A DNA stretch of 42,539 bases from a virus. Its lineage: Duplodnaviria > Heunggongvirae > Uroviricota > Caudoviricetes. The notes under the pieces are model-generated. The model ran no database searches. It saw only the letters and a list, made by a program, of their open reading frames with translations, and was not told the DNA's origin. The translations under genes were made by a program, and so were the position numbers. Shown here piece by piece: positions 6,840-30,956 of the stretch. The stretch lies in the IMG/VR virus record IMGVR_UViG_2897341779_000003, one strand, 5' to 3'. The first letter of the stretch is position 1; every line of letters begins with the position of its first letter.

Positions 6840-7169
6840 CTAAGCGGTAACGTTTTCCTCTTCTAGTTCGTCCATCATTTTTAAATAATGCATTTCGTCA
6901 CCAGTAGCTGAAAATATTGTTCTCAATTGTTTTAGGTATTTATCTGGGTCTATGTCGCCCATATCAGTAATATTTACCGCATCAGAGTGAGAACCTCTGT
7001 TAATGTATCTGTAGAATGCTTTGAAATCACTGTTGCTATCGTCGCGTGCCAACTTTGTTAATTCATCTTGTAGAGCATCTGTTCTATGAACAAATGCAAA
7101 ATAATATTCTAGTATGTTTCTCATAATATTCGGTATTATGATTTTGTTTGCTTTGCTGCGTATTTTCAT
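6840..7169 (-). pseudogene. 3' fragment (108-109 codons) of the IS-interrupted RloC/PrrC-like gene; candidate nuclease domain
   Basis: Reading frame is continuous with the 9706-11643 ORF once the IS is removed; contains R-x3-E (RNILE) followed by a downstream His, reminiscent of the anticodon-nuclease Arg-Glu-His triad; AT-rich. Confidence 0.55.
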
Positions 7170-7349
7170 GAAAGGAGATCACTCAATAACTTCCATCGAG
7201 ATCGGGTAATAACATTTGAACAGATCGCTGAATAACATCGATGGAGATCACTTTTGACTCATTTTGTTATTCAGTGATCTCCATCAATGTTATTGGAACT
7301 TCACAGGTGTGTTGATCTGTATCTTTTGCCATTCCGGTAAAGGATACCT

Positions 7350-8891
7350 ATGCCAACAGTTCCAATTTCTATGAGAAAACTTAAAGAAATTCTTAGGCTT
7401 AAATACGGTGTTGGACTCAGCCATCGACAAATTGGTCGTAGTCTTGCAATCTCCCCTTCCGTTGTATCCAGATATGCTAATCGGGCGGCTCAACTTGGCA
7501 TAAAGCAGTGGCCCTTACCTACAGGATGGGATGATACAAAACTAAAACATGCGTTCCTTCAGACCCAGGTTAAGATGAAGAAGCACTCTCTGCCTGACTG
7601 GGCTACAGTACACCGGGAACTGCGTAATAAATGCGTGACGCTGCAGCTACTCTGGGAAGAATACTGTGAGCGTAATCCAGGCGGTTTTTACAGCTATAAC
7701 CATTACTGCCGGATGTACCGTGAATGGCTCAAAACCACTTCACCATCAATGCGTCAGGTACATAAAGCTGGCGAAAAACTTTTCGTTGATTACTGTGGAC
7801 CTACCGTTGGCGTTACCGACCCTGAGACCGGAGAAATAAGAACTGCTCAGGTCATCGTAGCTGTTCTCGGGGCATCAAGTTACACATGGGCAGAGGCCAC
7901 CTGGTCTCAGCAGCTTGAAGACTGGGTGATGAGTCATGTTCGCTGCTTCCAGTGGTTGGGTGGCGTTCCTGAACTTGTTGTTCCGGACAATCTGAAAAGC
8001 GCCACATCCAGGGCATGTAAGTATGATCCTGACGTTAACCCTACCTACCAGCAGATGCTTGAGCATTATAATGTCGCAGTTTTGCCTGCGCGGCCACGTA
8101 AACCGAAAGATAAAGCCAAAGCTGAAGTTGGCGTTCAGGTTGTTGAACGCTGGATCATGGCCCGAATCAGGCATGAGATCTTCTACAGCCTTGCATCGCT
8201 TAATCAGCGCATTCGGGAGTTGCTGGAAAGACTGAATAACAAAATAATGCAGAAGTTGGGTTATTCACGTGCAGAACTCTTCATCCAGCTTGATAAACCC
8301 GCACTGAAGCCTCTTCCTGAAGCCAGTTACAGTTACACCCTGGTGAAGAAAGTCAGAGTTCATGCCGATTACCACGTGGAAATCGACAAACATTACTACT
8401 CGGTTCCATGTTCGCTGTTAGGCCAGCAACTGGAAGCATGGATCTCCGGAGAACTGGTAAGACTCTTCAATCAGGGGCAGGAGGTTGCTGTGCACCCGCG
8501 CAAGCGTACTTATGGCTACAGTACCCGCAACGAGCACATGCCTGAAGCTCATCGACAGCATGCCACCTGGACGCCAGAGCGTCTTCTGGAATGGGCGGGG
8601 CACATAGGCAGTGAAACTCATAGTTATGTGCTTCATATACTGAACTCTCGTCCACATCCGGAACAAAGCTATCGCTTCTGCCTTGGACTCCTGAACCTTC
8701 ATAAAAAATACAGTAAAGCCAGACTTAATGCAGCATGTGCAAGAGCTCTGAAAACAAAGGTATGGCGTCTGTCAGGTATTAAATCGATCCTGGAAAAAGG
8801 TCTGGATAAACAACCTGTTCAGGATCCAAAACCAGATCTGTTATCCACGATGGAACACGAAAACGTACGCGGCAGTGAGTATTACCACTGA
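7350..8891 (+). CDS. istA: IS21-family transposase IstA (513 aa)
   Basis: N-terminal HTH, integrase-core-like middle region; followed by istB with a short gap. Confidence 0.85.
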   Translation: MPTVPISMRKLKEILRLKYGVGLSHRQIGRSLAISPSVVSRYANRAAQLGIKQWPLPTGWDDTKLKHAFLQTQVKMKKHSLPDWATVHRELRNKCVTLQLLWEEYCERNPGGFYSYNHYCRMYREWLKTTSPSMRQVHKAGEKLFVDYCGPTVGVTDPETGEIRTAQVIVAVLGASSYTWAEATWSQQLEDWVMSHVRCFQWLGGVPELVVPDNLKSATSRACKYDPDVNPTYQQMLEHYNVAVLPARPRKPKDKAKAEVGVQVVERWIMARIRHEIFYSLASLNQRIRELLERLNNKIMQKLGYSRAELFIQLDKPALKPLPEASYSYTLVKKVRVHADYHVEIDKHYYSVPCSLLGQQLEAWISGELVRLFNQGQEVAVHPRKRTYGYSTRNEHMPEAHRQHATWTPERLLEWAGHIGSETHSYVLHILNSRPHPEQSYRFCLGLLNLHKKYSKARLNAACARALKTKVWRLSGIKSILEKGLDKQPVQDPKPDLLSTMEHENVRGSEYYH

Positions 8892-8902
8892 TACGGGATC
8901 CA

Positions 8903-9652
8903 ATGATGAATCATCTTTACGAACAACTGACCGCACTTAAACTCACCGGCTTCCGTGATGCGCTTAAAAAGCAACTTGCTCAGCCGGGCACATACCAGGA
9001 GCTGGGCTTCGAAGAACGCCTGTCATTACTGACAGCAGAAGAACTAACCTGCCGTGAAAACAGGAAGGCAGAGCGTCTGATCAAACATGCACGGTTCAGA
9101 CTTAATGCTGAGTTATCAAAGCTGGATTATCGTAACAATAGAGGGCTGGACAGGGCCCTCATCCGTTCACTCAGTCAGGGAAACTGGTTAACCCTGAAAC
9201 AAAATATTTTACTGACCGGGGCCACCGGCAGCGGTAAAACGTTCCTGGCATGTGCACTTGGTCATAATGCCTGCCGACAGGGATACAAGGTCTACTATTA
9301 TCGCCTTAAAGCGCTGATGGAACAGTGCTATCAGGGGCATGCTGATGGAAGATACAGCAAACTTTTGACCAGGCTGAATAATAGCGATCTGCTGCTTCTG
9401 GATGACTGGGGGCTGGAACCTCTCTCATCAGAACAGCGTAGCGACCTGCTGGAAATAGTGGATCTGATGTACCAACGAGGCTCAATCATCGTAGTGAGCC
9501 AGTTGCCGGTGGAAAACTGGTACAAAATGATCGGAGACTCCACACATGCGGATGCCATCCTAGATCGACTGGTTCATGGCAGTATCAAGATCGAACTTAA
9601 AGGAGAATCAATGCGGAAAATACAATCACCGTTGACCGAAGGAGATCAGTGA
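8903..9652 (+). CDS. istB: IS21-family helper ATPase IstB (249 aa)
   Basis: Walker A LLTGATGSGKTF and Walker B LLLLDDWG; DnaC-like architecture typical of IstB. Confidence 0.85.
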   Translation: MMNHLYEQLTALKLTGFRDALKKQLAQPGTYQELGFEERLSLLTAEELTCRENRKAERLIKHARFRLNAELSKLDYRNNRGLDRALIRSLSQGNWLTLKQNILLTGATGSGKTFLACALGHNACRQGYKVYYYRLKALMEQCYQGHADGRYSKLLTRLNNSDLLLLDDWGLEPLSSEQRSDLLEIVDLMYQRGSIIVVSQLPVENWYKMIGDSTHADAILDRLVHGSIKIELKGESMRKIQSPLTEGDQ

Positions 9653-9705
9653 AGGTAATTTAAAAACGGTTCTGTGAAAGTGACACGAACCGATCTCCAT
9701 CGATG

Positions 9706-11643
9706 TTACTCACCGATCTCCTTCACGGTAATACGCACTTTGCCATCTTTTGCATCTTTTAATATTTGCCACAAAGATTGATATTCATTCTGTATGCTGT
9801 TTTTTTGTATTTCAGTAATTATACTAAAATCATTTTTCGTTACTCTACCTAGATAATAGTTTTTCTTAAATAGTTTGTCTTCTCTGCTTTTAGGAGATAG
9901 CTTAATAAGTTCATGAAAGAAATAAAGATTGTGAGTAAGGATTAATACCTTCTTTGTTAATTCATTTTTTATAATGTGGTGATGAATAATTGATGCGATG
10001 TCGTAGACATAGTTTTGCGATAGACTAGATATTGGATCGTCAATAACAATAAAAATATCCCTGCTATCGGTATCATTTTTATCGGTTTTACCTTTACAGC
10101 ACTCTAAAAAATAAAGAAACGTTATTAGTGTTTTTTCACCTTCGCTAAGAGATCTATAAACATTTTGGTTTTTTGTATGCCCTGGTCGAGATATAATGTA
10201 CATATCTTTTCTTTCTGCATGTTTTTCAATACAAAAACCAGAGATCCCTAGATTTTTTAAATGGGTGTTTATTGAGTCTATCGTAGAATCAATGTTAGAT
10301 ATTTTATCTCGCAATGCTTTTATTGTGAGATTATTTTCTTTTCCTTGTTGCTCAATATTATTTAATTCATCATGAACTTTCTTTTTGATATCAAAGAATT
10401 TTTCTTTGTGTTTGGATAAATTCTCTAAATCATCGCTGCAAAAAGCATGGAGAGCCCCCCAAACTTGTTTTCCGATTTTATTCTCATACTCTTTGAGTTT
10501 TTTAACCTTATCATTTATGTCTCTTATTTTCTTGTTAACAGCGCCTATGCTTTCCTGAACATGATTTTCTAGTTCTTTATCAATTTCTAATGTAACGCAT
10601 GTTGATGGATTGTTGATCTTATCAATAATGTTTATTAAATTTTTTTCTGCAATGTTTTGCAATATTTTAATATTGGAAATAATGTTCTCTTTATCTTTCT
10701 CATTGATTAGTGCACATGATGATATATTGTTTTGTATTTCGTTAAAATGATATATGGTATTTTTCTCATAAACTGACTTTATATCTGAGAGCTGTTTTAC
10801 TTTCTTTGAATAACTTTCGTCAAATATTGATTTAAGGGCATTTAAAAATTCGTGACTAATAGTTTTTTCCTGACAAAACGGACATGTAGAACCGTCTAAA
10901 TAATGTTCTTTACCTTTTTTTACCCAGTCAAGATTATGAAGTTTATTAATGGTTTCTGATAAATAGCTATTGCTTGTATCTATTATAGGTGTTGCTAATG
11001 TATTTACATCATCAATTGATGGGGTATATGGATGTAAAGGAGTTATTAATGCGGTTTCATTGTTTCTATTTTCTAATAGTATAGAGTATTCTTTTGCTAT
11101 ATCATTTAAATTAATAAAGGTGATTGGTGAGGATGATTTTATCATCTCAAAAAAAGGTCTTTTATAGCCAACTTTACCTTTCATTAAGGTTTTTAGTACA
11201 GAGTTTCTGATTGGTTCTGTTTTTTTCCAGATCGATTCGATGTATTCATTTTCTTTTTTTTCCATTTCTGCTTCTAATTTCAATAACACTCCTTTTTTTT
11301 GTCTATATTGCTCTGTGAGTTGCTGTTTAATTGCTTCTTTTTCAATTAATTGTTTTTCAATATCTGCATTTTCTTTACTTAATGTAAAAACACCTTTTTG
11401 TTCCTGTGCATTATAGAAGTTATCTTCAATAAATTTAGTGTTGTAAACAAGAGGTTTGTAATTGTCAAGAAGGGTACATTCACACTCGTTATAATCTGTG
11501 TGTGTAGAGTCGTAGAAATAATTTGAAATGGTAGATTTGCCACAACCATTTTGGCCGTATAGTATGTTTACTCTTTTTTCAAGATTCAGTATTGTGAAGG
11601 CGTCTTTCTTATAACTGGTAACATTTTTTAATCTAAGTTCCAT
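9706..11643 (-). pseudogene. 5' portion (about 639 native codons) of a Rad50/ABC-type ATPase with CxxC hook, RloC/PrrC-like candidate defence gene, truncated by the IS
   Basis: Walker A GQNGCGKST, coiled-coil-like stretches, CPFCQ, ABC-signature-like LSEGEK, Walker B IFIVIDDP, H-loop LILTHN; the last 6 codons and the stop derive from the IS end; about 30% GC. Confidence 0.6.
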
Positions 11644-11958
11644 TTTTATGCCTCATACGATAAAGCTTTTATTGTATGTAAAAAAGCAGCTTAATATAGC
11701 CACTTAGTGGTAAAGATCTACCTTAAGACTTTGATATGTTCAAGAGGCATATAACGTAAGTGTTCGTTGAGCCAAATGTGTTTACGCTATGACGAGTTGG
11801 TCGTTTTTTGACAATCCTGTAGGAGCTATAGATAGGCGTATATTAAGTGCGTGTTTTTGCATGTGTCAGATACTATTCTTTTTGTCAGTTTCGGTCAGTG
11901 CTGATGTGATTTCAGTTTCATCATGCAACTGCATTAAAACCGCCCCATGAAGCGGGCG

Positions 11959-11977
11959 GGCGAGGCGGGGAAAGCAC
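11959..11977. other. cos site (19-nt P2-type cohesive end sequence)
   Basis: GGCGAGGCGGGGAAAGCAC, located between the accessory slot and Q as in P2. Confidence 0.7.
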
Positions 11978-12119
11978 TGCGCGCTGGCGGTGGTGCTGAT
12001 TTTATTTTTTCAGCGTCTCAGCGCGTCGTGACGGCGCTTAGTCTGCCCGTTGAGGCGCTGGTGTGTCTGCGGGGTGTTTTGTGCGGTGGTGAGCGTGTGA
12101 GGGCGTGATGACGGGGTGT

Positions 12120-12141
12120 AAAAAAGCCGCCCGCAGGCGGC
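12120..12141 (-). terminator. rho-independent terminator downstream of Q (minus strand)
   Basis: GC-rich hairpin GCCGCC-CGCA-GGCGGC followed on the minus strand by a U-run; 5 bp after the Q stop. Confidence 0.6.
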
Positions 12142-12146
12142 GATGT

Positions 12147-13181
12147 TCAGCCGTTGTCAGTGTCCAGTGAGTAGTTTTTAAAGCGGATGACCTCCTGACC
12201 GAGCCAGCCGTTTATTTCCCGAATCCTGTCCTGTAGCGGGATAAGTTCATTGCGGACAAAGACCTTTGCCACTTTCTCAATATCACCCAGAGACCCGACG
12301 TTTTCCGGCTTGCCGCCCATCAACTGAAAGGGGATGCGGTGCGCATCCAGCAGGTCAACGGCGCTGGCTTTTTTGATATTAAAAAAATCGTCCTTCGTCG
12401 CCACTTCACTGAGCGGGATAATTTTAATGCCGTCGGCTTTCCCCTGTGGGGCATAGAGAAACAGGTTTTTAAAGTTATTGCGGCCTTTCGACTTCACCAT
12501 GTTTTCGCGAAGCATTTCGATATCGTTGCGGTCCTGCACGGCATCGGTGACGTACATGATGTATCCGGCATGCGCGCCGTTTTCGTAATACTTGCGGCGG
12601 AACAGCGTGGCCGACTCATTCAGCCAGGCAGAGTTAAGGGCGCTGAGATATTCCGGCAGGCCGTACAGCTCCTGATTAATATCCGGCTCCAGCAGGTGAA
12701 ACACGGAACCGGGCGCGAAAGGTGTCGGCTCGTTGAAGGACGGCACCCACCAGTAAACATCCTCCTCCACGCCACGGCGGGTATATTTTGCCGGTGAGGT
12801 TTCCAGTCTGATGATCTTACCGGTGGTGCTGTAACGCTTTTCCAGAAACGCATTACCGAACACCAGAAAATCCAGCACAAAGCGGCTGAAATCCTGTTGC
12901 GAAAGCCACGGATGCGGGATAAATGTCGAGGCCAGAATATTGCGTTTAACGTAAATCGGTGAGCTGTGATGCACGGCAGCACGCAGGCTTTTCGCCAGAC
13001 CGGTAAAGCTGACCGGCGGCTCATACCATCTGCCGTTACTGATGCACTCGACGTAATCCAGAATGTCACGGCGGTCGAGTACCGGCACCGGCTCACCAAA
13101 GGTGAATGCCTCCATTTTCGGGGCGCTGGCGGTCATTTTTTTTGCCGCAGGTTGCGGTGTTTTCCCTTTTTTCTTGCTCAT
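12147..13181 (-). CDS. Q: portal protein (344 aa)
   Basis: 344 aa as in P2 gpQ; first gene after cos, co-oriented with P; ATGA overlap with the P stop. Confidence 0.9.
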   Translation of the reverse strand: MSKKKGKTPQPAAKKMTASAPKMEAFTFGEPVPVLDRRDILDYVECISNGRWYEPPVSFTGLAKSLRAAVHHSSPIYVKRNILASTFIPHPWLSQQDFSRFVLDFLVFGNAFLEKRYSTTGKIIRLETSPAKYTRRGVEEDVYWWVPSFNEPTPFAPGSVFHLLEPDINQELYGLPEYLSALNSAWLNESATLFRRKYYENGAHAGYIMYVTDAVQDRNDIEMLRENMVKSKGRNNFKNLFLYAPQGKADGIKIIPLSEVATKDDFFNIKKASAVDLLDAHRIPFQLMGGKPENVGSLGDIEKVAKVFVRNELIPLQDRIREINGWLGQEVIRFKNYSLDTDNG

Positions 13182-23819: not shown

Positions 23820-26549
23820 ATGAGCACGAAATTTAAAACCGTTATCACTACTGCCGGAGCCGCAAAGCTGGCAGCCGCCACTGTCCCCGGCGGGAAAAAA
23901 GTAACCCTGTCTGCAATGGCCGTGGGTGACGGTAATGGCAAATTGCCGGTGCCGGATGCCGGTCAGACGAAACTGGTGCATGAGGTCTGGCGTCACGCTC
24001 TGAATAAAGTCAGCGTGGATAACAAGAATAAAAACTATATCGTGGCTGAACTGGTTGTACCGCCCGAAGTGGGCGGCTTCTGGATGCGTGAGCTTGGTCT
24101 GTATGACGATGCCGGAACACTGATTGCGGTATCCAACATGGCTGAAAGCTATAAGCCAGAACTGGCTGAAGGCTCCGGGCGTGCGCAGACCTGCCGCATG
24201 GTTATTATTGTCAGTAACGTGGCGTCCGTTGAGCTGAGTATTGATGCCAGCACAGTGATGGCGACGCAGGATTACGTCGATGACAAAATCGCAGAGCATG
24301 AGCAGTCCCGCCGCCATCCTGACGCCACGCTGACAGAAAAAGGTTTTACTCAGTTAAGCAGTGCAACAAACAGCACCAGTGAGTCATTGGCAGCAACGCC
24401 AAAAGCGGTCAAGGCAGCAAATGACAACGCAAATTCACGTCTGGCGAAAAATCAGAATGGTGCAGATATCCAGGATAAATCAGCTTTTCTGGACAATGTT
24501 GGCGTTACCAGCCTGACGTTTATGAAAAACAATGGCGAAATGCCGGTTGATGCTGATCTGAATACGTTTGGTTCTGTTAAGGCTTATTCAGGTATCTGGT
24601 CTAAAGCAACGTCCACCAACGCAACACTGGAGAAAAACTTCCCTGAAGATAATGCTGTCGGTGTGCTTGAGGTTTTTACTGGCGGCAATTTTGCAGGCAC
24701 GCAACGCTATACCACACGTGACGGAAATTTGTATATCCGCAAACTCATTGGAACATGGAATGGTAATGATGGACCATGGGGAGCATGGCGCCATGTTCAG
24801 GCTGTAACGCGAGCTCTAAGTACGACCATTGACCTTAACTCTCTCGGTGGCGCAGAACATTTAGGTCTATGGAGAAACAGCAGTTCAGCAATAGCTTCTT
24901 TTGAACGACATTACCCCGAGCAGGGAGGAGACGCGCAGGGCATTCTGGAAATTTTCGAAGGTGGGCTATATGGACGCACACAGCGTTATACAACCCGTAA
25001 CGGGACTATGTATATTCGCGGCCTGACAGCCAAATGGGATGCAGAAAATCCACAGTGGGAAGACTGGATCCAAATTGGTTATCAGACCAGTAGTACCTTC
25101 TATGAGGATGACCTGGATGATTTGATGTCTCCAGGTATTTACAGTGTGACAGGCAAAGCGACCCACACCCCAATCCAGGGGCAGTCTGGTTTTCTGGAAG
25201 TCATCAGGCGCAAGGATGGTGTCTATGTTTTGCAACGTTACACGACCACAGGAACCAGCGCAGCTACAAAAGACCGTTTATATGAGCGAGTGTTTCTTGG
25301 TGGCTCATTTAACGCGTGGGGGGAGTGGCGACAGATTTATAACTCAAACTCTTTGCCGTTAGAGTTGGGTATCGGTGGCGCAGTGGCAAAACTCACCAGC
25401 CTGGACTGGCAGACATACGATTTTGTGCCGGGCAGTCTGATAACCGTTCGGCTGGATAACATGACCAATATTCCCGACGGTATGGACTGGGGCGTCATTG
25501 ATGGCAACCTGATAAACATCTCAGTCGGTCCGAGTGATGATTCTGGTTCGGGACGCTCAATGCATGTATGGCGCAGCACTGTAAGTAAAGCCAACTACCG
25601 CTTTTTTATGGTGCGTATTTCAGGAAATCCGGGAAGCCGCACGATCACGACAAGACGTGTGCCAATTATCGACGAAGCCCAGACATGGGGCGCGAAACAG
25701 ACATTCAGTGCTGGCCTTTCTGGTGAACTGTCCGGCAATGCGGCGACAGCAACAAAGCTGAAAACAGCCCGTAAAATTAATAACGTTTCGTTTGATGGAA
25801 CATCAGATATTAACCTGACGCCGAAAAATATTGGTGCATTTGCTTCAGGAAAAACAGGAGACACCGTTGCGAATGATAAAGCCGTTGGATGGAACTGGAG
25901 TAGCGGAGCCTATAACGCAACTATTGGTGGGGCATCAACGTTAATTCTTCATTTTAATATCGGGGAAGGAAGTTGTCCCGCCGCCCAGTTTCGCGTTAAT
26001 TATAAGAACGGTGGTATTTTTTATCGTTCTGCTCGTGACGGTTACGGATTCGAGGCTGACTGGTCTGAGTTTTATACCACAACGCGAAAACCTACAGCGG
26101 GAGATGTCGGTGCACTGCCGTTATCTGGTGGTCAATTGAATGGTGCTCTGGGTATAGGAACATCCAGTGCTCTTGGCGGTAATTCGATTGTTTTGGGTGA
26201 TAATGACACGGGCTTTAAACAAAATGGTGATGGTAATCTGGATGTTTATGCTAATAGCGTCCATGTTATGCGCTTTGTCTCCGGAAGCGTTCAAAGTAAT
26301 AAAACCATAAATATTACGGGGCGTGTTAATCCCTCGGATTACGGTAACTTTGATTCCCGCTATGTGAGAGATGTCAGACTTGGCACACGTGTTGTCCAGA
26401 CCATGCAGAAAGGGGTGATGTATGAGAAAGCAGGGCACGTAATTACCGGGCTTGGTATTGTCGGTGAAGTCGATGGTGATGACCCCGCAGTATTCAGACC
26501 AATACAAAAATACATCAATGGCACATGGTATAACGTCGCACAGGTGTAA
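23820..26549 (+). CDS. H: tail fibre protein (909 aa), conserved N-terminus and a variable repeat-containing C-terminus
   Basis: N-terminal region including the QLSSATNSTSESLAATPKAVK motif shared by P2 H and lambda Stf-type fibres; three internal QRYTTR-G-Y-R-W-W repeats; longer than P2 H (about 669 aa). Confidence 0.85.
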   Translation: MSTKFKTVITTAGAAKLAAATVPGGKKVTLSAMAVGDGNGKLPVPDAGQTKLVHEVWRHALNKVSVDNKNKNYIVAELVVPPEVGGFWMRELGLYDDAGTLIAVSNMAESYKPELAEGSGRAQTCRMVIIVSNVASVELSIDASTVMATQDYVDDKIAEHEQSRRHPDATLTEKGFTQLSSATNSTSESLAATPKAVKAANDNANSRLAKNQNGADIQDKSAFLDNVGVTSLTFMKNNGEMPVDADLNTFGSVKAYSGIWSKATSTNATLEKNFPEDNAVGVLEVFTGGNFAGTQRYTTRDGNLYIRKLIGTWNGNDGPWGAWRHVQAVTRALSTTIDLNSLGGAEHLGLWRNSSSAIASFERHYPEQGGDAQGILEIFEGGLYGRTQRYTTRNGTMYIRGLTAKWDAENPQWEDWIQIGYQTSSTFYEDDLDDLMSPGIYSVTGKATHTPIQGQSGFLEVIRRKDGVYVLQRYTTTGTSAATKDRLYERVFLGGSFNAWGEWRQIYNSNSLPLELGIGGAVAKLTSLDWQTYDFVPGSLITVRLDNMTNIPDGMDWGVIDGNLINISVGPSDDSGSGRSMHVWRSTVSKANYRFFMVRISGNPGSRTITTRRVPIIDEAQTWGAKQTFSAGLSGELSGNAATATKLKTARKINNVSFDGTSDINLTPKNIGAFASGKTGDTVANDKAVGWNWSSGAYNATIGGASTLILHFNIGEGSCPAAQFRVNYKNGGIFYRSARDGYGFEADWSEFYTTTRKPTAGDVGALPLSGGQLNGALGIGTSSALGGNSIVLGDNDTGFKQNGDGNLDVYANSVHVMRFVSGSVQSNKTINITGRVNPSDYGNFDSRYVRDVRLGTRVVQTMQKGVMYEKAGHVITGLGIVGEVDGDDPAVFRPIQKYINGTWYNVAQV

Positions 26550-26552
26550 TTT

Positions 26553-27080
26553 ATGCAGCATTTAAAAAATATTACTGCGGGTAATCCAAAAACTGTTGCC
26601 CAATATCAACTGACAAAAAATTTTGATGTTATCTGGTTATGGTCCGAAGAGGGAAAAAACTGGTATGAGGAAGTAAGTAATTTTCAGGAAGACACGATAA
26701 AGATTGTTTACGATGAGAATAATATAATTGTCGGCATCACCAGAGATGCTTCAACGCTCAACCCTGAAGGTTTTAGCGTTGTCGAGGTTCCTGATATTAC
26801 CGCCAACCGACGTGCTGATGACTCAGGTAAATGGATGTTTAAGGATGGTGCCGTGATTAAGCGGATTTATACGGCAGACGAACAGCTGCAACTGGCGGAA
26901 TTACAGAAGTCAGCTTTGCTTTCCGAAGCTGAAACTATCATTCAGCCACTGGAACGCTCTGTCAGACTGAATATGGCAACAGATGAGGAGCGTAGCCGAC
27001 TGGAAGCATGGGAACGCTACAGTGTTCTGGTCAGCCGTGTGGATCCTGCAAATCCTGAATGGCCGGAAATGCCGCAATAA
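26553..27080 (+). CDS. G: tail fibre assembly chaperone (175 aa)
   Basis: 175 aa immediately after H, as in P2. Confidence 0.8.
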
Positions 27081-27135
27081 GTTGTATGATCTCTGGAGTG
27101 AGCTAACGTATCTATAGCACAGAGTAAAGCCTAAT

Positions 27136-27146
27136 CTGACAGTCTG
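27136..27146. repeat. inverted copy (CTGACAGTCTG) of the 11-bp repeat core CAGACTGTCAG, sitting in the loop of a 10-bp inverted repeat (27115-27124 / 27147-27156)
   Basis: Exact reverse complement of the cores at 27259-27269 and 29569-29579. Confidence 0.6.
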
Positions 27147-27258
27147 CTCTGTGCTAGGAGCGGACTGACCTGCTTCCCGATGATTAATACACAGCTATGC
27201 TAGTAATGTCCGTAGATCGCTGTGTGTTGCATCCATCGGTTGAACTCACAGTCCAAAC

Positions 27259-27302
27259 CAGACTGTCAGCTTTGATTAGATTCTACCTACTCAACCTGTC
27301 AG
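27259..27302. repeat. left copy of an about 45-bp imperfect direct repeat bracketing the G-FI cargo
   Basis: Framework CAGACTGTCAG-c/g-TTTGAT...TGTCAG, with the two TGTCAG elements 32 bp apart in both copies. Confidence 0.65.
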
Positions 27303-27501
27303 ATAAGGTCTGAGCTAATACATCTAATATATGGCTTCGTGCAGGGGACGGCTATCGCGAACGTTAGGCCAGGTATCTGAATACGCACAGTTCACTTGGT
27401 TGTACTTCTTGCACTGATCTGCTATCCCGCACAGCTATTTATAGGTAATCTTCAGTGTATAATCTGCCAACTTATGGAAGCTTGTACAACAGGAGAAATA
27501 T

Positions 27502-28344
27502 ATGAAAAAAGAATTGTTTGGACGTTGCCCGTTTGATCTTGACGAAGATGTAAAAAAAATAGCCGCGATAAATAAATATATCCATGCAAAATTTGAGGAG
27601 CATAAAAATAAAATAGACAACCTAAAGGGTGTGGAACAAAAATTGATGGTCTTACAGTACTTTAATGTACTGAATGAACTTAGTAATCAGGCTATCTCTT
27701 CTTTGAATATAGGAGCCTTTTCAGCATCGGAAGTATTAGCTAGGGTTATAATAGAACAGGCTGCCAATCAATTTTATATAGCAATAGATGATGGCGAAAA
27801 TGCACAAGCATTACTCAAGGCTAGTAAGAAATTAGTTCATAGTAATGGAAAACGGTGGCTGGAGTGTTTAAAATCCAAAGGAATGACTAATCCAGCAGCA
27901 AATGAAAGGATTCGCATGGGAAAAGAACTAACTGATCTATTTAATAGATTGTGGCCAAATACACCTGAATATCCAGGAACCAGAAGACTTTTTGAATTAA
28001 TTGGCTGGGAAACACACTATCATGCCCATTACGTTCCCCTTTGTGATTCAATACATACATTCTCTGATGATATGGTAAATATAGTATCTCTATATAATGC
28101 AATCCAAAGTGATGAAAATACTGCTATCGAATTCATTCTTGCAGTTAAACAAGAAAATAAACGGCTGGCAATTTATAATTTTGTAATTGCTACGGCCCTT
28201 CGGTGTGAGGCCTTAGTAAATGTATTTAACTCTTTAGGTTATCAGGATATTATAACAGAAATGACACCAACAATAGATACAGTCAACCAGACTATAATTC
28301 GATATGATGATTTTGATCATTCCAGAATTGATGATTGTCAATAA
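27502..28344 (+). CDS. hypothetical protein (280 aa), AT-rich cargo gene; candidate phage-defence or superinfection-exclusion effector
   Basis: RBS AGGAG 7 nt before the ATG; candidate -10 TATAAT at 27458-27463; no confidently recognised domain; C-terminal R-x5-H (RYDDFDH). Confidence 0.6.
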   Translation: MKKELFGRCPFDLDEDVKKIAAINKYIHAKFEEHKNKIDNLKGVEQKLMVLQYFNVLNELSNQAISSLNIGAFSASEVLARVIIEQAANQFYIAIDDGENAQALLKASKKLVHSNGKRWLECLKSKGMTNPAANERIRMGKELTDLFNRLWPNTPEYPGTRRLFELIGWETHYHAHYVPLCDSIHTFSDDMVNIVSLYNAIQSDENTAIEFILAVKQENKRLAIYNFVIATALRCEALVNVFNSLGYQDIITEMTPTIDTVNQTIIRYDDFDHSRIDDCQ

Positions 28345-28450
28345 TTAATTGACAGAATACGTACATGCGCAACAACTAGTGATAGTTGACTTATTTTCGC
28401 TCTTGAGAGACAACCATACTCAAATCTCCCACATTGCAGGAGATTTGAAT

Positions 28451-29035
28451 ATGAAAACGTCACCGTGGAATAAAGACCGTACCATCGGTCAAAAAAGGCC
28501 ACTTCAGATATTTCATATCTGGGGGATCCGGATTAGACTTGAGTTGGAAGGTAAAACACGCGATCTAGCTCTGTTCAACATGGCTTTGGACACTAAGCTA
28601 CGGGGCTGTGATTTGGTCAAACTCAAAGTATCAGATGCTGCATATGGCAGTTCTGTCTCAAGCAGAGCAACGGTGTTGCAACAGAAAACCGGCAGCCCTG
28701 TCCAATTTGAGATAACCAAAGGGACAAGGGAAGCGGTTACTGCATTGATAAAGCTCGGCAACTGGCATAGTAAAGGCTTCCTGTTCCGCTCTCGGGTCGG
28801 AACTAACCACCATATATCAACCCGGCAATACAACCGAATTTTTCATGGGTGGGTAGAAAAGCTTGGTCTCGAAGATTCGCTGTACAGCACACATTCCATG
28901 AGAAGAACAAAACCTTACTTAATCTACAAGAAAACCAAGAGTCTCCGGGTGATCCAACTTCTGTTGGGCCATAAGAAACTGGAAAGCACAGTCCGTTATT
29001 TGGGCATTGAAGTCGATATAGAAGGTCTCTTTTAA
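28451..29035 (+). CDS. small tyrosine recombinase, catalytic domain only (about 194 aa), FimB/FimE-like
   Basis: Catalytic residues present in order: Arg (LRGCDL), Lys (QQKTG), His-x-x-Arg (HSMRRT), His (LLGHKK), Tyr (VRYLG); RBS AGGAG before ATG 28451; no N-terminal DNA-binding domain. Confidence 0.7.
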   Translation: MKTSPWNKDRTIGQKRPLQIFHIWGIRIRLELEGKTRDLALFNMALDTKLRGCDLVKLKVSDAAYGSSVSSRATVLQQKTGSPVQFEITKGTREAVTALIKLGNWHSKGFLFRSRVGTNHHISTRQYNRIFHGWVEKLGLEDSLYSTHSMRRTKPYLIYKKTKSLRVIQLLLGHKKLESTVRYLGIEVDIEGLF

Positions 29036-29057
29036 GTTATGGGGGCTGATTTTATAT

Positions 29058-29447
29058 TCAATAGCGTATGCTCATCGAAGAAATAAACTCATAAAATGTA
29101 AAGACAGCCAGCAAAAACATACAGATAAAGATAAGGGAAATAGCACACTTAACTAAGGGCTGAACCCCCCGAGGTGTTCCCCATGGTTTAGACATTTGGG
29201 TTATAACCCAAATAAATAAGGCCACAAAACAGCAAACACCAGCCAATCCGAGCAGAGATATTATGACAACTCCAAACAGATTTCCAACATCTAGTTTATC
29301 TGTTTTTGCAACTAGGGTTAACAAACCAGCAATAATAGTTGCAATCGATATTCCCGCAATGGTTGTGAGATCGGCGATAACAGCCAGTTTTTCTTTAGTA
29401 TTTCCTTGAGTAAAGACCTCTAAAATTGATTTCATGGAAATAACCAC
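29058..29447 (-). CDS. small integral membrane protein (129 aa, 3-4 predicted transmembrane helices)
   Basis: Strongly hydrophobic segments throughout; AT-rich; opposite strand to the surrounding late genes. Confidence 0.55.
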   Translation of the reverse strand: MVISMKSILEVFTQGNTKEKLAVIADLTTIAGISIATIIAGLLTLVAKTDKLDVGNLFGVVIISLLGLAGVCCFVALFIWVITQMSKPWGTPRGVQPLVKCAISLIFICMFLLAVFTFYEFISSMSIRY

Positions 29448-29568
29448 CTACTATCGATTATATTCAGGAGCTTTTTATCATAACGATATCAGATAGATAA
29501 GGACATTGTAATATTTTGGATGATTTAAACTTGCTTTTGTAACTCTAATGTCCACTTTTCGCTCAAAG

Positions 29569-29612
29569 CAGACTGTCAGGTTTGATAGCATTTGGGCTAT
29601 GTAAATTGTCAG
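29569..29612. repeat. right copy of the about 45-bp imperfect direct repeat bracketing the G-FI cargo
   Basis: CAGACTGTCAGGTTTGATAG...TTGTCAGG; same internal spacing as the left copy. Confidence 0.65.
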
Positions 29613-29642
29613 GCGGAAAATGAGTGAGTACAAATCAGGACA

Positions 29643-29669
29643 GGCGGGCGAATTGCCCGCCTTTTCTTT
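29643..29669 (+). terminator. rho-independent terminator separating the cargo from the FI late operon
   Basis: Hairpin GGCGGGC-GAATT-GCCCGCC followed by TTTTCTTT. Confidence 0.7.
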
Positions 29670-29765
29670 ATCTGTTGTTTCATCCACTGACCAGCCAGGT
29701 CAAATAGCGTCTTATGCTCTGCACAACAGAAAATAGTTGTACCCATTAACCACGGAGTTAAACGG

Positions 29766-30956
29766 ATGAGTGACTATCATCATGGCGTGCAGGTGCTGGA
29801 GATTAACGACGGCACCCGCGTCATTTCCACCGTATCCACTGCCATTGTCGGCATGGTCTGCACGGCCAGCGATGCGGATGCGGAAACCTTCCCCCTCAAT
29901 AAACCGGTGCTGATTACCAATGTGCAAAGCGCAATTGCAAAGGCCGGTAAAAAAGGCACGCTGGCGGCATCGTTGCAGGCCATCGCTGACCAGTCAAAAC
30001 CGGTCACCGTTGTCGTGCGCGTGGAAGACTGCACCGGTGATGACGAGGAAACGAAACTCGCGCAGACCGTTTCCAATATCATCGGCACCACCGACGAAAA
30101 CGGTCAGTACACCGGACTAAAAGCCCTGCTGGCGGCGGAGTCGGTAACCGGTGTTAAACCGCGTATTCTCGGTGTGCCGGGACTGGATACCAAAGAGGTG
30201 GCTGTTGCACTGGCATCCGTCTGTCAGAAGCTGCGCGCTTTCGGATATATCAGCGCATGGGGCTGTAAGACCATTTCCGAGGTGAAAGCCTACCGCCAGA
30301 ATTTCAGCCAGCGTGAGCTGATGGTCATCTGGCCGGATTTCCTCGCATGGGATACGGTCACCAGTACCACCGCTACCGCGTATGCCACCGCCCGTGCGCT
30401 GGGTCTGCGCGCTAAAATCGACCAGGAGCAGGGCTGGCATAAAACGCTGTCCAACGTCGGGGTAAACGGTGTTACCGGCATCAGCGCATCTGTATTCTGG
30501 GATTTGCAGGAGTCCGGCACCGATGCTGACCTGCTTAACGAGTCAGGCGTCACTACGCTGATTCGCCGCGACGGTTTCCGATTCTGGGGTAACCGTACCT
30601 GCTCTGATGACCCGCTGTTCCTCTTTGAAAACTACACCCGCACCGCGCAGGTACTGGCTGACACGATGGCTGAGGCGCACATGTGGGCGGTGGACAAGCC
30701 CATCACCGCAACGCTGATTCGCGACATCGTTGACGGCATCAATGCCAAATTCCGTGAGCTGAAAACAAACGGCTATATCGTGGATGCGACCTGCTGGTTC
30801 AGCGAAGAATCCAACGATGCGGAAACCCTCAAGGCCGGAAAACTGTATATCGACTACGACTATACACCGGTGCCTCCTCTTGAAAACCTGACCCTGCGCC
30901 AGCGTATTACCGATAAATACCTGGCAAATCTGGTCACCTCGGTTAACAGCAATTAA
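29766..30956 (+). CDS. FI: tail sheath protein (396 aa)
   Basis: 396 aa as in P2 gpFI. Confidence 0.9.
   Translation: MSDYHHGVQVLEINDGTRVISTVSTAIVGMVCTASDADAETFPLNKPVLITNVQSAIAKAGKKGTLAASLQAIADQSKPVTVVVRVEDCTGDDEETKLAQTVSNIIGTTDENGQYTGLKALLAAESVTGVKPRILGVPGLDTKEVAVALASVCQKLRAFGYISAWGCKTISEVKAYRQNFSQRELMVIWPDFLAWDTVTSTTATAYATARALGLRAKIDQEQGWHKTLSNVGVNGVTGISASVFWDLQESGTDADLLNESGVTTLIRRDGFRFWGNRTCSDDPLFLFENYTRTAQVLADTMAEAHMWAVDKPITATLIRDIVDGINAKFRELKTNGYIVDATCWFSEESNDAETLKAGKLYIDYDYTPVPPLENLTLRQRITDKYLANLVTSVNSN

Follow-up and report, generated by a model that had tools for sequence, protein, structure and literature searches.

A partly decayed cassette array in the tail-gene hotspot of a P2-like prophage and a possible integron-like exchange of defence cassettes in Enterobacterales

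In the stretch of viral DNA analysed here (the window, 42,539 nucleotides), 2.7 kb of cargo with 34–47% GC, versus 51–58% in FI, lies between P2 gene G (tail fibre assembly, plus strand, 26553–27080; PF02413 Caudo_TAP, 6.7e-34, same annotation in ATCC 11775) and P2 gene FI (tail sheath, plus strand, 29766–30956; Phage_sheath_1, 1e-33), the left and right backbone genes of the locus. An earlier note, made from the sequence alone, had described AT-rich cargo with three genes at this place, and this is indeed what is present. The genes encode a 280-aa, all-helical DUF5677 protein (plus strand, 27502–28344), the cargo of the middle cassette, a small Xer-like tyrosine recombinase of 194 aa (plus strand, 28451–29035) and a small membrane protein of 125 aa (minus strand, 29058–29435; phrog_4155, 1.3e-84). 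The cargo is located upstream of the block formed by the late promoter PF and the Rho-independent terminator ahead of it (plus strand, 29637–29667, inverted repeat I19), as expected for cargo of the P2 Z/fun hotspot. Position, backbone flanks and variable AT-rich cargo are all those of this hotspot. We think it rather likely that this interval represents the P2 hotspot for Z/fun accessory genes, holding a partly decayed array with three cassette slots.

The paired direct repeats reported in the earlier note are statistically real. They occupy 27254–27302 and 29564–29612 (71% identity, 49 nt), and their core CAGACTGTCAGNTTTGAT occurs exactly twice in the 42.5 kb versus 0 times in 100 shuffles. 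With one 32-nt gap the homology covers 27203–27322 and 29545–29632, and the gapped alignment scores 44.9, compared with 18.1 ± 3.3 for shuffles (maximum 30.5). The second TGTCAG, located 32 bp further downstream, belongs to a palindrome (CTGTCAGRTTTGATAGC, 6 nt, GCTATGTAAATTGTCAG), of which it forms the far arm. A third copy, which had been missed, is inverted and located at 27133–27165, where it is 79% complementary over 33 nt to 29550–29582; this inverted repeat is kept in 13 P2-like hotspots. The hotspot is delimited by two inverted backbone sites, L (27126–27166) and R (29546–29592). The L site (plus strand, inverted relative to the R sites; inverted repeat I1/I2) has boxes GTCTGCT (27142–27148) and AGCGGAC (27159–27165) around the 10-nt spacer CTGTGCTAGG and overlaps a P2-specific hairpin (GCACAGAG...CTCTGTGC). 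In 13 P2-like hotspots it is conserved through ...GTGCC and variable beyond. The R site (plus strand), with which the right direct repeat begins, has boxes GTCCACT (29550–29556) and AGCAGAC (29567–29573) around the spacer TTTCGCTCAA, and is variable up to TCGCTCA and conserved beyond in 13 hotspots. A repeat-element HMM built exclusively from non-P2 arrays finds both P2 boundary sites, L at model positions 35–75 (E 1.5e-4 against all loci) and R at positions 5–51 (E 5e-5).

Alignment of the G–FI interval with other P2-like phages, as proposed in the earlier note, identified these sites as conserved hotspot boundaries with unrelated cargo between them. P2, Wphi, 12474III, R18C, TUM18781, SaT040, YpM_46, AC1, L-413C and PSUO2 all keep both the right repeat and the inverted left site and carry unrelated cargo. 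The idea that the repeats are cassette-specific ends is not supported, since the right copy is P2 backbone and occurs without the recombinase. That the repeats bracket the cargo holds for the right copy, which stands at the boundary, but not for the left copy as the cargo's left edge, P2 backbone homology ending at ~27165 in the comparison with other P2-like hotspots. The cargo-less hotspot of the NCTC11151 prophage, in which the terminator comes directly after the G stop codon, is the only cargo-less form found; it has neither of the two sites and shows no L-R fusion. Beyond the right R site, comparison of hotspots revealed a conserved P2 'post-R' palindrome (plus strand, 29574–29636). Phage vB_YpM_22 has a fresh recombinase leader plus ATGAACACGTCACCGTGGAA at this position, and by eye the palindrome most likely represents a diverged remnant of a recombinase 5' leader and first codons. 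An Rfam search of 26900–29900 gave no match at E <= 1, and the conserved right boundary thus corresponds to no known RNA. The possibility that the right repeat is a small RNA with its end at the terminator was considered and rejected, Rfam being empty and the fold no better than shuffles (z = -0.5).

The cargo is not one 2.6-kb cassette with its own ends, as had been claimed, but is put together from the remnant of one cassette, a cassette with DUF5677, a recombinase unit and a membrane-protein cassette, the last of which is separate and stands alone in other P2-like prophages. The proposed order would be L site, 38-bp remnant, dead recombinase unit, DUF5677 cassette, R site with truncated recombinase, membrane-protein cassette and R site; the dead recombinase unit would correspond to the left direct repeat and the final R site to the right one. 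The segment 27165–27221 is 75% identical to a cassette end and the next R site in a lambdoid prophage (L108, 6966–7022), and this match marks 27167–27202 as the end of an otherwise deleted cassette (about 38 bp). Next to it, inside the cargo, lies another copy of the P2-type right boundary (plus strand, 27203–27322; direct repeat D1), made up of an R site (TAATGTCCGTAGATCGCT), a 32-nt insertion (27222–27253), CAAACCAGAC and the palindrome with TGTCAG. This segment accompanies DUF5677 in lambdoid prophages (L017–L020). A possible degenerate L site (GGCTTCGTGCAG...CGCGAACGTT, plus strand, 27331–27366), recognised by eye, has GCTTCGTGC and GCGAACGTT in common with the L consensus and was not matched by the repeat-element HMM; it might, weakly, be taken as the end of the dead recombinase unit and the start of the DUF5677 cassette.

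The recombinase is a standalone catalytic-domain enzyme, as previously noted (PF00589, 1.5e-17). Its residues R51, K79, H148, R151, H174 and Y183, the R-K-H-x-x-R-H-Y set that is invariant across the recombinase family, are intact. The family profile aligns to XerD residues 131–278, i.e. the catalytic domain only; phmmer with the single sequence found no match in the PDB, and the family profile alone reached Xer proteins. The protein does not belong to the XerC or XerD families (42.7 bits versus 335 and 25 bits versus 330, respectively). The unit begins with an R site whose left box is degenerate (GTTGACT TATTTTCGCTCTT GAGAGAC, plus strand, 28385–28411), and homology to every other recombinase locus starts at 28394–28400. 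Homology to full-length genes ends at 29017, and the last 12 codons of the 200-aa family, a C-terminal tail that is nearly invariant, are replaced by IEGLF. Comparison with TUM18781 and SaT040, in which the terminator hairpin of the membrane-protein cassette is intact (AGAGACCTTATAGAAGGTCTCT), reveals an illegitimate junction at 29017–29030 between the truncated gene and the loop of this hairpin, where the recombinase's own L site is lost. Sister copies of the gene are pseudogenes or deleted. Self-mobilisation today is unlikely because the recombinase tail and the downstream site are missing and the sister copies have decayed in this manner; judged from these sequence features, the local recombinase is probably disabled. 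The claimed link between recombinase and repeats is supported for the recombinase family, whose gene is always nested between sites of the repeat family noticed earlier, and it is at these sites that elements differ in their cassettes; it is not supported for self-mobilisation by the truncated local enzyme. Further exchange would need a full-length recombinase in trans, and such copies are found in about one E. coli genome in six (recombinase unit in 912 of 5426).

The 280-aa protein, previously taken for an orphan, matches DUF5677 (PF18928, 8e-10) and phrog_4167. A homologue search retrieved 10 proteins only, and the AlphaFold2 model (pLDDT 76.8) had no match among PDB folds at E <= 0.001. 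Distant homologues occur in lambdoid prophages without R/L sites, and DUF5677 and the recombinase are thus not an obligate pair. None of the three cargo proteins matched the PADLOC 2.0 defence models at E <= 0.1, and PADLOC, NCBIfam and Pfam together recognised only DUF5677 and a generic integrase domain. The suggestion that the cargo is a phage-defence or superinfection-exclusion system thus finds neither a PADLOC match nor a fold match of the DUF5677 model. In an Enterococcus assay, a DUF5677 protein was not one of the active candidates (PMC12632615). The two cargo proteins, DUF5677 and the membrane protein, may be regarded as candidate anti-phage or exclusion factors, a function that we infer.

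Outside the window, the sites form a family with a defined architecture, GTCCGCT, 10 bp and AGCGGAC, i.e. inverted 7-bp boxes around a spacer, in which L sites contain GTGCCA and R sites TCGCTCA (3–4 of about 7 core positions differ). In other Enterobacterales, R and L stand side by side as imperfect palindromes of ~66 bp (64–66) between cassettes of 1–4 kb with one to three genes on either strand, and in one palindrome per array the loop harbours a gene for an Xer-like recombinase of ~200 aa. These array cassettes hold defence systems (Lit, SIR2-HerA, NsnABC, type IV REase, DUF4238). Complete ~66-bp R-L elements were present in all 11 enterobacterial recombinase loci examined, oriented as the recombinase except for two inverted ones in one locus (L035), and they number ~23 in 176 kb, whereas 5426 E. 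coli genomes have them at ~1000 places. The recombinase gene was nested between R and L in each of the enterobacterial loci examined, and inter-locus homology always spanned about 710 bp from R to L, the loci diverging beyond. Full-length recombinase genes (Acerihabitans, Providencia, E. coli and others) have ...GTCCGCTTTTCGCTCAT... upstream and ...CTGTGCCAGAAGCGGACGTT downstream. These loci establish the site family and its link with the recombinase gene. Pseudomonas-type homologues have their own inverted repeats, which change along with the protein lineage, and no arrays were found within ±8 kb of them. Each half-site, like the whole R-L element, folds as a hairpin, and the elements are not ordinary terminators since they are devoid of a U-tract. 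Conserved sites of 25–70 bp could also serve homologous recombination equally well.

Several cassettes are shared between unrelated elements, with boundaries at these sites. The P2-like phage vB_YpM_46 has a 1957-bp cassette in common with an array in a lambdoid prophage, at 98.9% identity and with breakpoints inside the L site and right after ...CTCCTCGCTCA, and the pro147 cargo is 91% identical to an Erwinia cassette. In further P2-like prophages, including TUM18781 (98%) and SaT040, the membrane-protein cassette is found by itself or next to different partners. The SaT040 hotspot has the order L, membrane cassette, complete element, DUF6650 cassette, R. Set against TUM18781, this order matches exactly what insertion of a circle by R x R recombination should produce, and in each hybrid R site the switch in the left arm falls at TCGCTCA. 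Three shared cassettes keep one constant orientation relative to L and R, as does the recombinase unit in all six Providencia loci. Illegitimate junctions were seen in the hotspot on the right side of pro147, in the IHE3034 deletion and at 29017 in the window. Recombination products in the form of a circular junction, a mixed population or an otherwise identical genome pair differing by one cassette were not found.

Taken together, the window is probably a decayed member of an integron-like cassette-exchange system. On a broader scale we tentatively propose, at somewhat less than even confidence, a previously unrecognised integron-like exchange of defence cassettes at R/L sites across P2-like and lambdoid hotspots, plasmids and islands of Enterobacterales. 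Strand exchange by the recombinase would take place inside the spacers of two sites of the same kind, R x R or L x L, a rule that we infer together with catalysis at these sites. A circle of one cassette plus one palindrome could insert beside a resident cassette, and the older cassette could then be removed, as in an integron. The differing R and L spacers would prevent inversion, and the expected circle or deletion junction would read ...TCGCTCA|A(G/A)AAGCGGAC....

Several features count against this explanation. Besides the absence of recombination products, the illegitimate junctions, the lack of arrays near the Pseudomonas-type homologues, the missing C-terminal tail and the unsupported cargo function, these are a spacer of 10 bp versus the 6–8 bp usual for tyrosine recombinases, a recombinase without core-binding domain and its absence from most P2 hotspots. 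The last one supports the view that R and L are merely conserved linkers, inherited as insulator or hairpin sequences at cassette borders, with cassettes moving by homologous or microhomology-mediated recombination and the recombinase being a selfish palindrome-inserting passenger or a relic with another job. Sites of 25–70 bp with 70–90% identity are enough for exchange driven by RecA or a phage recombinase, several junctions in the hotspot are illegitimate, and half-sites and whole elements do form hairpins. However, conserved linkers would not account for the nesting of the recombinase between R and L in every enterobacterial locus examined, for inverted repeats that change with the protein lineage in Pseudomonas, for inverted boxes around a conserved spacer, which is the architecture of a recombinase core site, or for the fact that in 11–13 hotspots variable sequence gives way to conserved sequence at one and the same position of the spacer; the missing U-tract argues against ordinary terminators. 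We regard this view as rather unlikely.

The model of the earlier note, a single self-mobilising 2.6-kb cassette ended by direct repeats and excised by its own recombinase with one repeat left behind, can draw on the reality of the repeats and on the complete set of catalytic residues, and recombining the two copies as R x R would formally be the reaction of the explanation preferred here. It appears most improbable, because the right copy belongs to the phage backbone and occurs together with unrelated cargo, the cargo is composite (the membrane-protein cassette exists alone and the DUF5677-recombinase block occurs separately in lambdoid prophages), and the recombinase gene is cut short and without its L site here, while the sister loci have it as a pseudogene or not at all. 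Moreover, the predicted one-repeat deletion form was absent from the inspected variants among 2687 E. coli genomes matching the G-cargo-FI interval. A FimB/FimE-like invertase that flips segments between inverted L and R and so switches cargo expression is suggested by the inverted sites flanking the cassettes and the recombinase unit, by the size of about 200 aa with a catalytic domain only, shared with FimB/FimE, which act on short inverted repeats, and by a weak match to NF007371 'tyrosine-type DNA invertase' (8.1e-5). This match misses the model, reaching 22.2 bits versus a cut-off of 222. What the sites enclose are exchangeable cassettes, not a promoter segment, and no inversion variants were seen: three multi-context cassettes and the recombinase unit in six Providencia loci keep one orientation, in a small sample. 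With R and L spacers differing in the core, which should block R x L, an invertible switch is very unlikely.

The integron-like system favoured here shares with integrons the cassette arrays split by imperfect palindromes of ~60–80 bp beginning ...AAC and ending GTT..., an array-attached tyrosine recombinase gene, the proposed mobile unit of a cassette plus one palindrome, and defence cargo. It differs in its recombinase, which is 200 aa long without the IntI-specific insert and encoded inside a palindrome, not beside attI; the IntI models NF011946 and TIGR02249 gave 17.8 bits versus cut-offs of 435 and 265 (194–200 aa versus about 320). The palindromes of 64–66 bp with AAC/GTT flanks and hairpin folds may recall attC in these features, but the flanks are not RYYYAAC/GTTRRRY, and the palindrome resembles two double-stranded core sites, not one folded single-strand site. 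Instead of the promoterless, co-oriented single-ORF cassettes downstream of Pc in integrons, cassettes here are 1–4 kb, often multigene, in either direction and with their own promoters. The pdif modules of Acinetobacter plasmids, in which XerC/XerD sites flank resistance and toxin-antitoxin modules, are likewise discrete, placed between inverted core sites of an Xer-like enzyme and common to unrelated replicons; unlike the present system, they have 28-bp dif-like sites and depend on chromosomal XerC/XerD rather than an element-borne 200-aa enzyme. To our knowledge, dif and pdif sites have no sequence resemblance to GTCCGCT-N10-AGCGGAC, whose boxes and 10-bp spacer are unlike the 28-bp dif (11-6-11). 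RAYT/REPIN systems also place a single-copy recombinase gene between inverted copies of a palindromic repeat dispersed elsewhere, but RAYTs are HUH (Y1) transposases (PF01797) whereas the recombinase here is PF00589, and REPINs are not cassette boundaries.

According to PMC8987985, inverted repeats around Z/fun were proposed to allow site-specific exchange with enterobacterial genomes (Nilsson, Karlsson & Haggard-Ljungquist 2004). The hotspot is also treated by Rousset et al. 2022 (PMC9122126), and Moura de Sousa et al. 2026 (PMC13586616) call its exchange mechanism unresolved; no recombinase is named for the exchange in these three articles. Inverted repeats at the locus have been known since 2004. 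What seems new is their connection with a family of ~200-aa recombinases and with arrays of several cassettes outside P2, for which full-text searches gave no earlier description. Large surveys report that defence systems of P2-like phages are replaced fast, with near-identical systems on plasmids and other elements. If the proposal is true, the P2 tail hotspot, the lambdoid hotspot and the plasmid and island arrays would be docking points of one exchange system, and this would explain by what mechanism, missing so far, unrelated mobile elements swap defence systems. It would also provide a sequence signature for cassette limits and for new defence genes, as the content between L and the next R. 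The question could then be tested directly with a defined enzyme and defined 24-bp sites. The window's own message is modest, that of a decayed example with a recombinase that is probably dead.

Two minor observations may be added. CAGACTGTCAG at 5987 was considered as another site, but it lies inside gene A without other site features and was taken as chance. In the window, a palindrome (plus strand, 28415–28453; 15-nt arms, 9-nt loop; I6, 93% complementary) covers the recombinase gene's Shine-Dalgarno sequence and its ATG. Its single-strand DNA fold has z = -3.4, and although the sequences have changed, 19 of 22 homologues keep the Shine-Dalgarno paired.

The expected tail genes H (23820-26549), G (26553-27080) and FI (29766-30956) are all present in the window, which is a P2-like prophage. 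Between G and FI lies a gap of 2.7 kb with a GC content of 34-47% (51-58% in FI), and three genes are found inside it. They encode a DUF5677 protein of 280 aa (27502-28344, plus strand), a tyrosine recombinase catalytic domain of 194 aa (28451-29035, plus strand, truncated at about 29017) and a membrane protein of 125 aa (29058-29435, minus strand). The region 26553-30956 matches E. coli ATCC 11775 at 100% identity and S88 at 99.7%, and the whole G-cargo-FI interval is present in 36 of 5426 complete E. coli genomes. The direct repeat reported around the cargo in the earlier note is real, with 71% identity over 49 nt between 27254-27302 and 29564-29612. Its 18-nt core has two copies in the window and none in 100 shuffles. 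The larger segments 27203-27322 and 29545-29632 are homologous with one 32-nt insertion (score 44.9 versus a shuffle maximum of 30.5), and an inverted copy of the repeat is located at 27133-27165.

To place these repeats, the G-FI intervals of P2, Wphi, 12474III, R18C, TUM18781, SaT040, vB_YpM_46, P2_AC1, vB_YpM_22, L-413C, pro147 and PSUO2 were compared. The cargo is unrelated in all 12. Their left flank is common up to ...CTGACAGTCCGCTCTGTGCC, and the right flank is common from ...TCGCTCAAAGCAGACTGTCAGATTTGATAGC... onward in 10 of them, the right side deviating in vB_YpM_22 and pro147. This common right flank spans the terminator and also the PF activator site known from the P2 annotation. 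Because such flanks are common to P2-like phages with unrelated cargo, we read the right repeat and the inverted left copy, from sequence comparison, as the standard boundaries of the Z/fun hotspot. The repeats had been proposed to be the cassette's own ends; the right one is instead P2 backbone, conserved next to unrelated cargo. The hotspot and its inverted repeats are already known. As cited in PMC8987985, Nilsson et al. 2004 describe inverted repeats flanking Z/fun that are thought to permit site-specific exchange with bacterial genomes.

In every enterobacterial homologue of the recombinase, homology between loci starts upstream at ...AACGTCCGCTTTTCGCTCAT... and stops downstream at ...CTGTGCCAGAAGCGGACGTT. 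The two ends form an inverted repeat; the upstream end resembles the right boundary of the P2 hotspot and the downstream end the left boundary. A scan of the recombinase loci revealed that both also occur side by side, forming imperfect palindromes of 64-66 bp. We named the half-sites R and L, and the palindrome an R-L element, with the structure AAC GTCCGCTyyTCGCTCAcAGCGGAC - loop - GTCCGCTtcGTGCCAGAAGCGGAC GTT. In each half, two inverted 7-bp boxes enclose a 10-bp spacer, which contains TCGCTCA in R and GTGCCA in L. The recombinase gene is located in the loop of one such element. Further elements repeat every 1-4 kb in the orientation of the recombinase, except in an Edaphovirga locus (L035) where two are inverted. 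Loci of this type were found in Providencia, Erwinia, Leclercia, Buttiauxella, Pectobacterium (plasmid), Pantoea, Phytobacter, Klebsiella (plasmid), Edaphovirga and Rahnella. About 23 complete elements were counted in 176 kb around recombinase genes, compared with about 1000 locations across 5426 E. coli genomes, an enrichment to be read as an order of magnitude only, since the two counts come from differing search methods.

An HMM built solely from non-P2 elements matches the window at 27126-27166 as an L half and at 29546-29592 as an R half. It matches both halves in TUM18781, P2 and Wphi; 12474III and R18C yield just the L half at the threshold used. Comparison of 13 P2 hotspots places the transition between conserved backbone and cassette-specific sequence after GTGCC in the L site and, in the R site, at or before TCGCTCA. 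The right boundary of Yersinia phage vB_YpM_22 (locus L111), about 270-120 nt before FI, has an R site and, after it, a nearly intact recombinase leader with the first seven codons (ATGAACACGTCACCGTGGAA), which then joins the terminator region. This fresh leader suggests that a recombinase 5' end survives, as an old remnant, in the conserved P2 palindrome after the R site, which has the two TGTCAG motifs; the resemblance in P2 was judged by eye. A cargo-less P2-like prophage of E. coli NCTC11151 (L106, 831-960) has only 128 bp between G and FI, with the terminator directly after the G stop codon and neither L site, R site nor cargo. The hotspot together with its sites thus looks like an acquired piece of an R/L cassette array. 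Several other genomes have the same short G-FI form.

The gap in the window begins with the P2-backbone L site (27126-27166), followed by a remnant matching the end of a cassette in a lambdoid array (27167-27202), a second P2-type R site with its palindrome, which includes the left direct repeat (27203-27322), and a possible degenerate L site seen by eye only (27331-27366). The recombinase unit has its own R site (28385-28411) and a leader hairpin (28415-28453). At 29017-29030 the recombinase gene is joined to the terminator-hairpin loop of the membrane-protein cassette, and the P2-backbone R site (29546-29592) is followed by the palindrome, terminator, PF and FI. The block 27217-29017 recurs in E. 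coli lambdoid prophages at 87-89% identity; in these copies the recombinase is a pseudogene (73-bp deletion), an intact L site follows it and an IS3 element abuts the left end. In E. coli IHE3034 (L001) a 1046-bp deletion with GTAAA microhomology (window 28556-29601; breakpoint L001 3503/3504, window 28555/29602) leaves little of the recombinase and nothing of the membrane-protein gene or the R site, and the DNA to its right is from another P2 lineage (94.9% identity). Taken together, these features make the cargo composite and decaying, rather than the single cassette with ends of its own envisaged earlier. The exact CAGACTGTCAG that occurs a fourth time at 5987-5997, inside replication gene A, has nothing else in common with R or L sites and was put down to chance.

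The recombinase is not a phage-integrase fragment, a possibility raised in the earlier note: its family, found in gamma- and betaproteobacteria, is natively about 200 aa long. Mean column identity is 77% over 22 sequences, with at least 57% identity to the window copy. The residues R51, K79, H148, R151, H174 and Y183 are invariant in the family and all present in the window copy. The family profile aligns to the XerD catalytic domain (residues 131-278), and the window protein falls below every curated family cut-off tried (Xer, integron integrase, invertase). It matches full-length genes only up to 29017, and IEGLF replaces the nearly invariant tail DALEISESIEV. In tyrosine recombinases, contacts between subunits commonly involve the C-terminal segment, as established for Cre and XerD, and the local enzyme is for this reason probably inactive. 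Full-length units, present in 912 of the 5426 E. coli genomes, could act in trans; WP_023147793.1 of E. coli UK_Dog_Liverpool is one example of a full-length enzyme. The leader hairpin holds the recombinase gene's Shine-Dalgarno sequence in its paired stem, and often the AUG as well. It lies at the same position in loci L008, L009, L015, L026-L074 and L108, and is kept in 19 of 22 homologues despite altered sequence (TCTCC/GGAGA, CCTCC/GGAGG, ACTCC/GGAGT). This hairpin may control translation or serve as a DNA site. In Pseudomonas/Stutzerimonas homologues (L058, L065, L074, L076, L081; about 62% identity) another, perfect inverted repeat (GGCCGGTTAGCG / CGCTAACCGGCC) flanks the gene, about 80 nt upstream and just downstream, with no more copies within 8 kb. 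The flanking repeat varies in step with the protein lineage.

Cassettes are shared between unrelated elements, with breakpoints in the sites. The P2 hotspot of SaT040 (ST131) contains L, a membrane-protein cassette, a complete element, a DUF6650 cassette and R, and that of TUM18781 contains L, the same membrane-protein cassette and R. The difference is the segment predicted for R x R insertion of an element-plus-cassette circle, and in the hybrid R sites the left arm switches at TCGCTCA. A 1957-bp cassette is shared at 98.9% identity by P2-like phage vB_YpM_46 and a lambdoid prophage of E. coli UK_Dog_Liverpool, where its neighbours are a complete element on one side and the recombinase unit on the other; homology begins inside the L site and ends right after ...CTCCTCGCTCA. 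An L half and an R half also delimit the lambdoid hotspot itself. The pro147 cargo is 91% identical to a cassette in an Erwinia array. Orientation relative to L and R is constant in all three shared cassettes. The main rival explanation, a plausible one, is general recombination, in which the sites would be mere homology patches. We favour a site-specific platform for cassettes, similar to an integron or a dif module, and regard the window example as a decayed member of it. The recombinase would bind the GTCCGCT/AGCGGAC boxes and exchange strands within the spacer. With 3-4 positions differing between the spacer cores of R and L, recombination would occur between like sites only (R x R, L x L), which would explain the constant orientation. 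R x R insertion followed by L x L deletion would swap one cassette for another, and the expected circle junction is ...GTCCNNTNNTCGCTCA|A(G/A)AAGCGGACGTT....

A 2026 survey of P2 and P4 defence loci regards the exchange mechanism as open (PMC13586616). Our literature search, which did not include Nilsson et al. 2004, found no account linking the sites to a specific small recombinase family, none of R-L palindromes as separators within arrays, and none of sites common to P2-like and lambdoid prophages, plasmids and islands; priority is therefore partly uncertain.

The Pectobacterium plasmid cassettes encode, in order, Lit, an unknown protein, SIR2+HerA, the recombinase unit and NsnABC, and those of Buttiauxella include a type IV restriction enzyme, a helicase system and DUF4238. 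In other arrays, NUDIX, transporter and regulator genes were recognised by eye from translations, and cassette genes point in either direction. In view of what accompanies such cassettes elsewhere, the anti-phage or exclusion role proposed for the cargo is plausible, but unsupported, for the DUF5677 or membrane protein; PADLOC gave no match for any of the three window cargo proteins. A DUF5677 protein from a Gram-positive host was one of nine candidates tried in E. faecalis, outside the five reported active (PMC12632615). The AlphaFold2 model of the window DUF5677 protein is all-helical (pLDDT 76.8), with no fold match in the PDB. The subfamily invariants Y173, H174, P179-L-C-D-S183, H185 and S188-D-D-M191 cluster at residues 172-191, the sole internal stretch with pLDDT <50, and may form a metal or active site.

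Two further loci were of note. A Buttiauxella MAG (L030) carries two recombinase units in one array (7995-8603 and 11850-12458), 3.2 kb apart and separated by a helicase-containing cassette. In a lambdoid prophage contig from a metagenome (L015, 4036-9097), the recombinase unit has an OLD-like ATPase-TOPRIM gene on one side and an AAA_15/AAA_21 plus HNH gene pair on the other, and lies directly after the phage replication genes, which is the hotspot position of E. coli prophages L017-L020 and L108. In the window itself, the other P2 hotspot, between A and Q (6840-11643), contains a candidate defence gene (PADLOC PDC-S06, Pfam AAA_13) interrupted by an IS21-family element. Its N-terminal 645 aa (9706-11643) and C-terminal 109 aa (6840-7169), both on the minus strand, are separated by IstA (7350-8891) and IstB (8903-9652).
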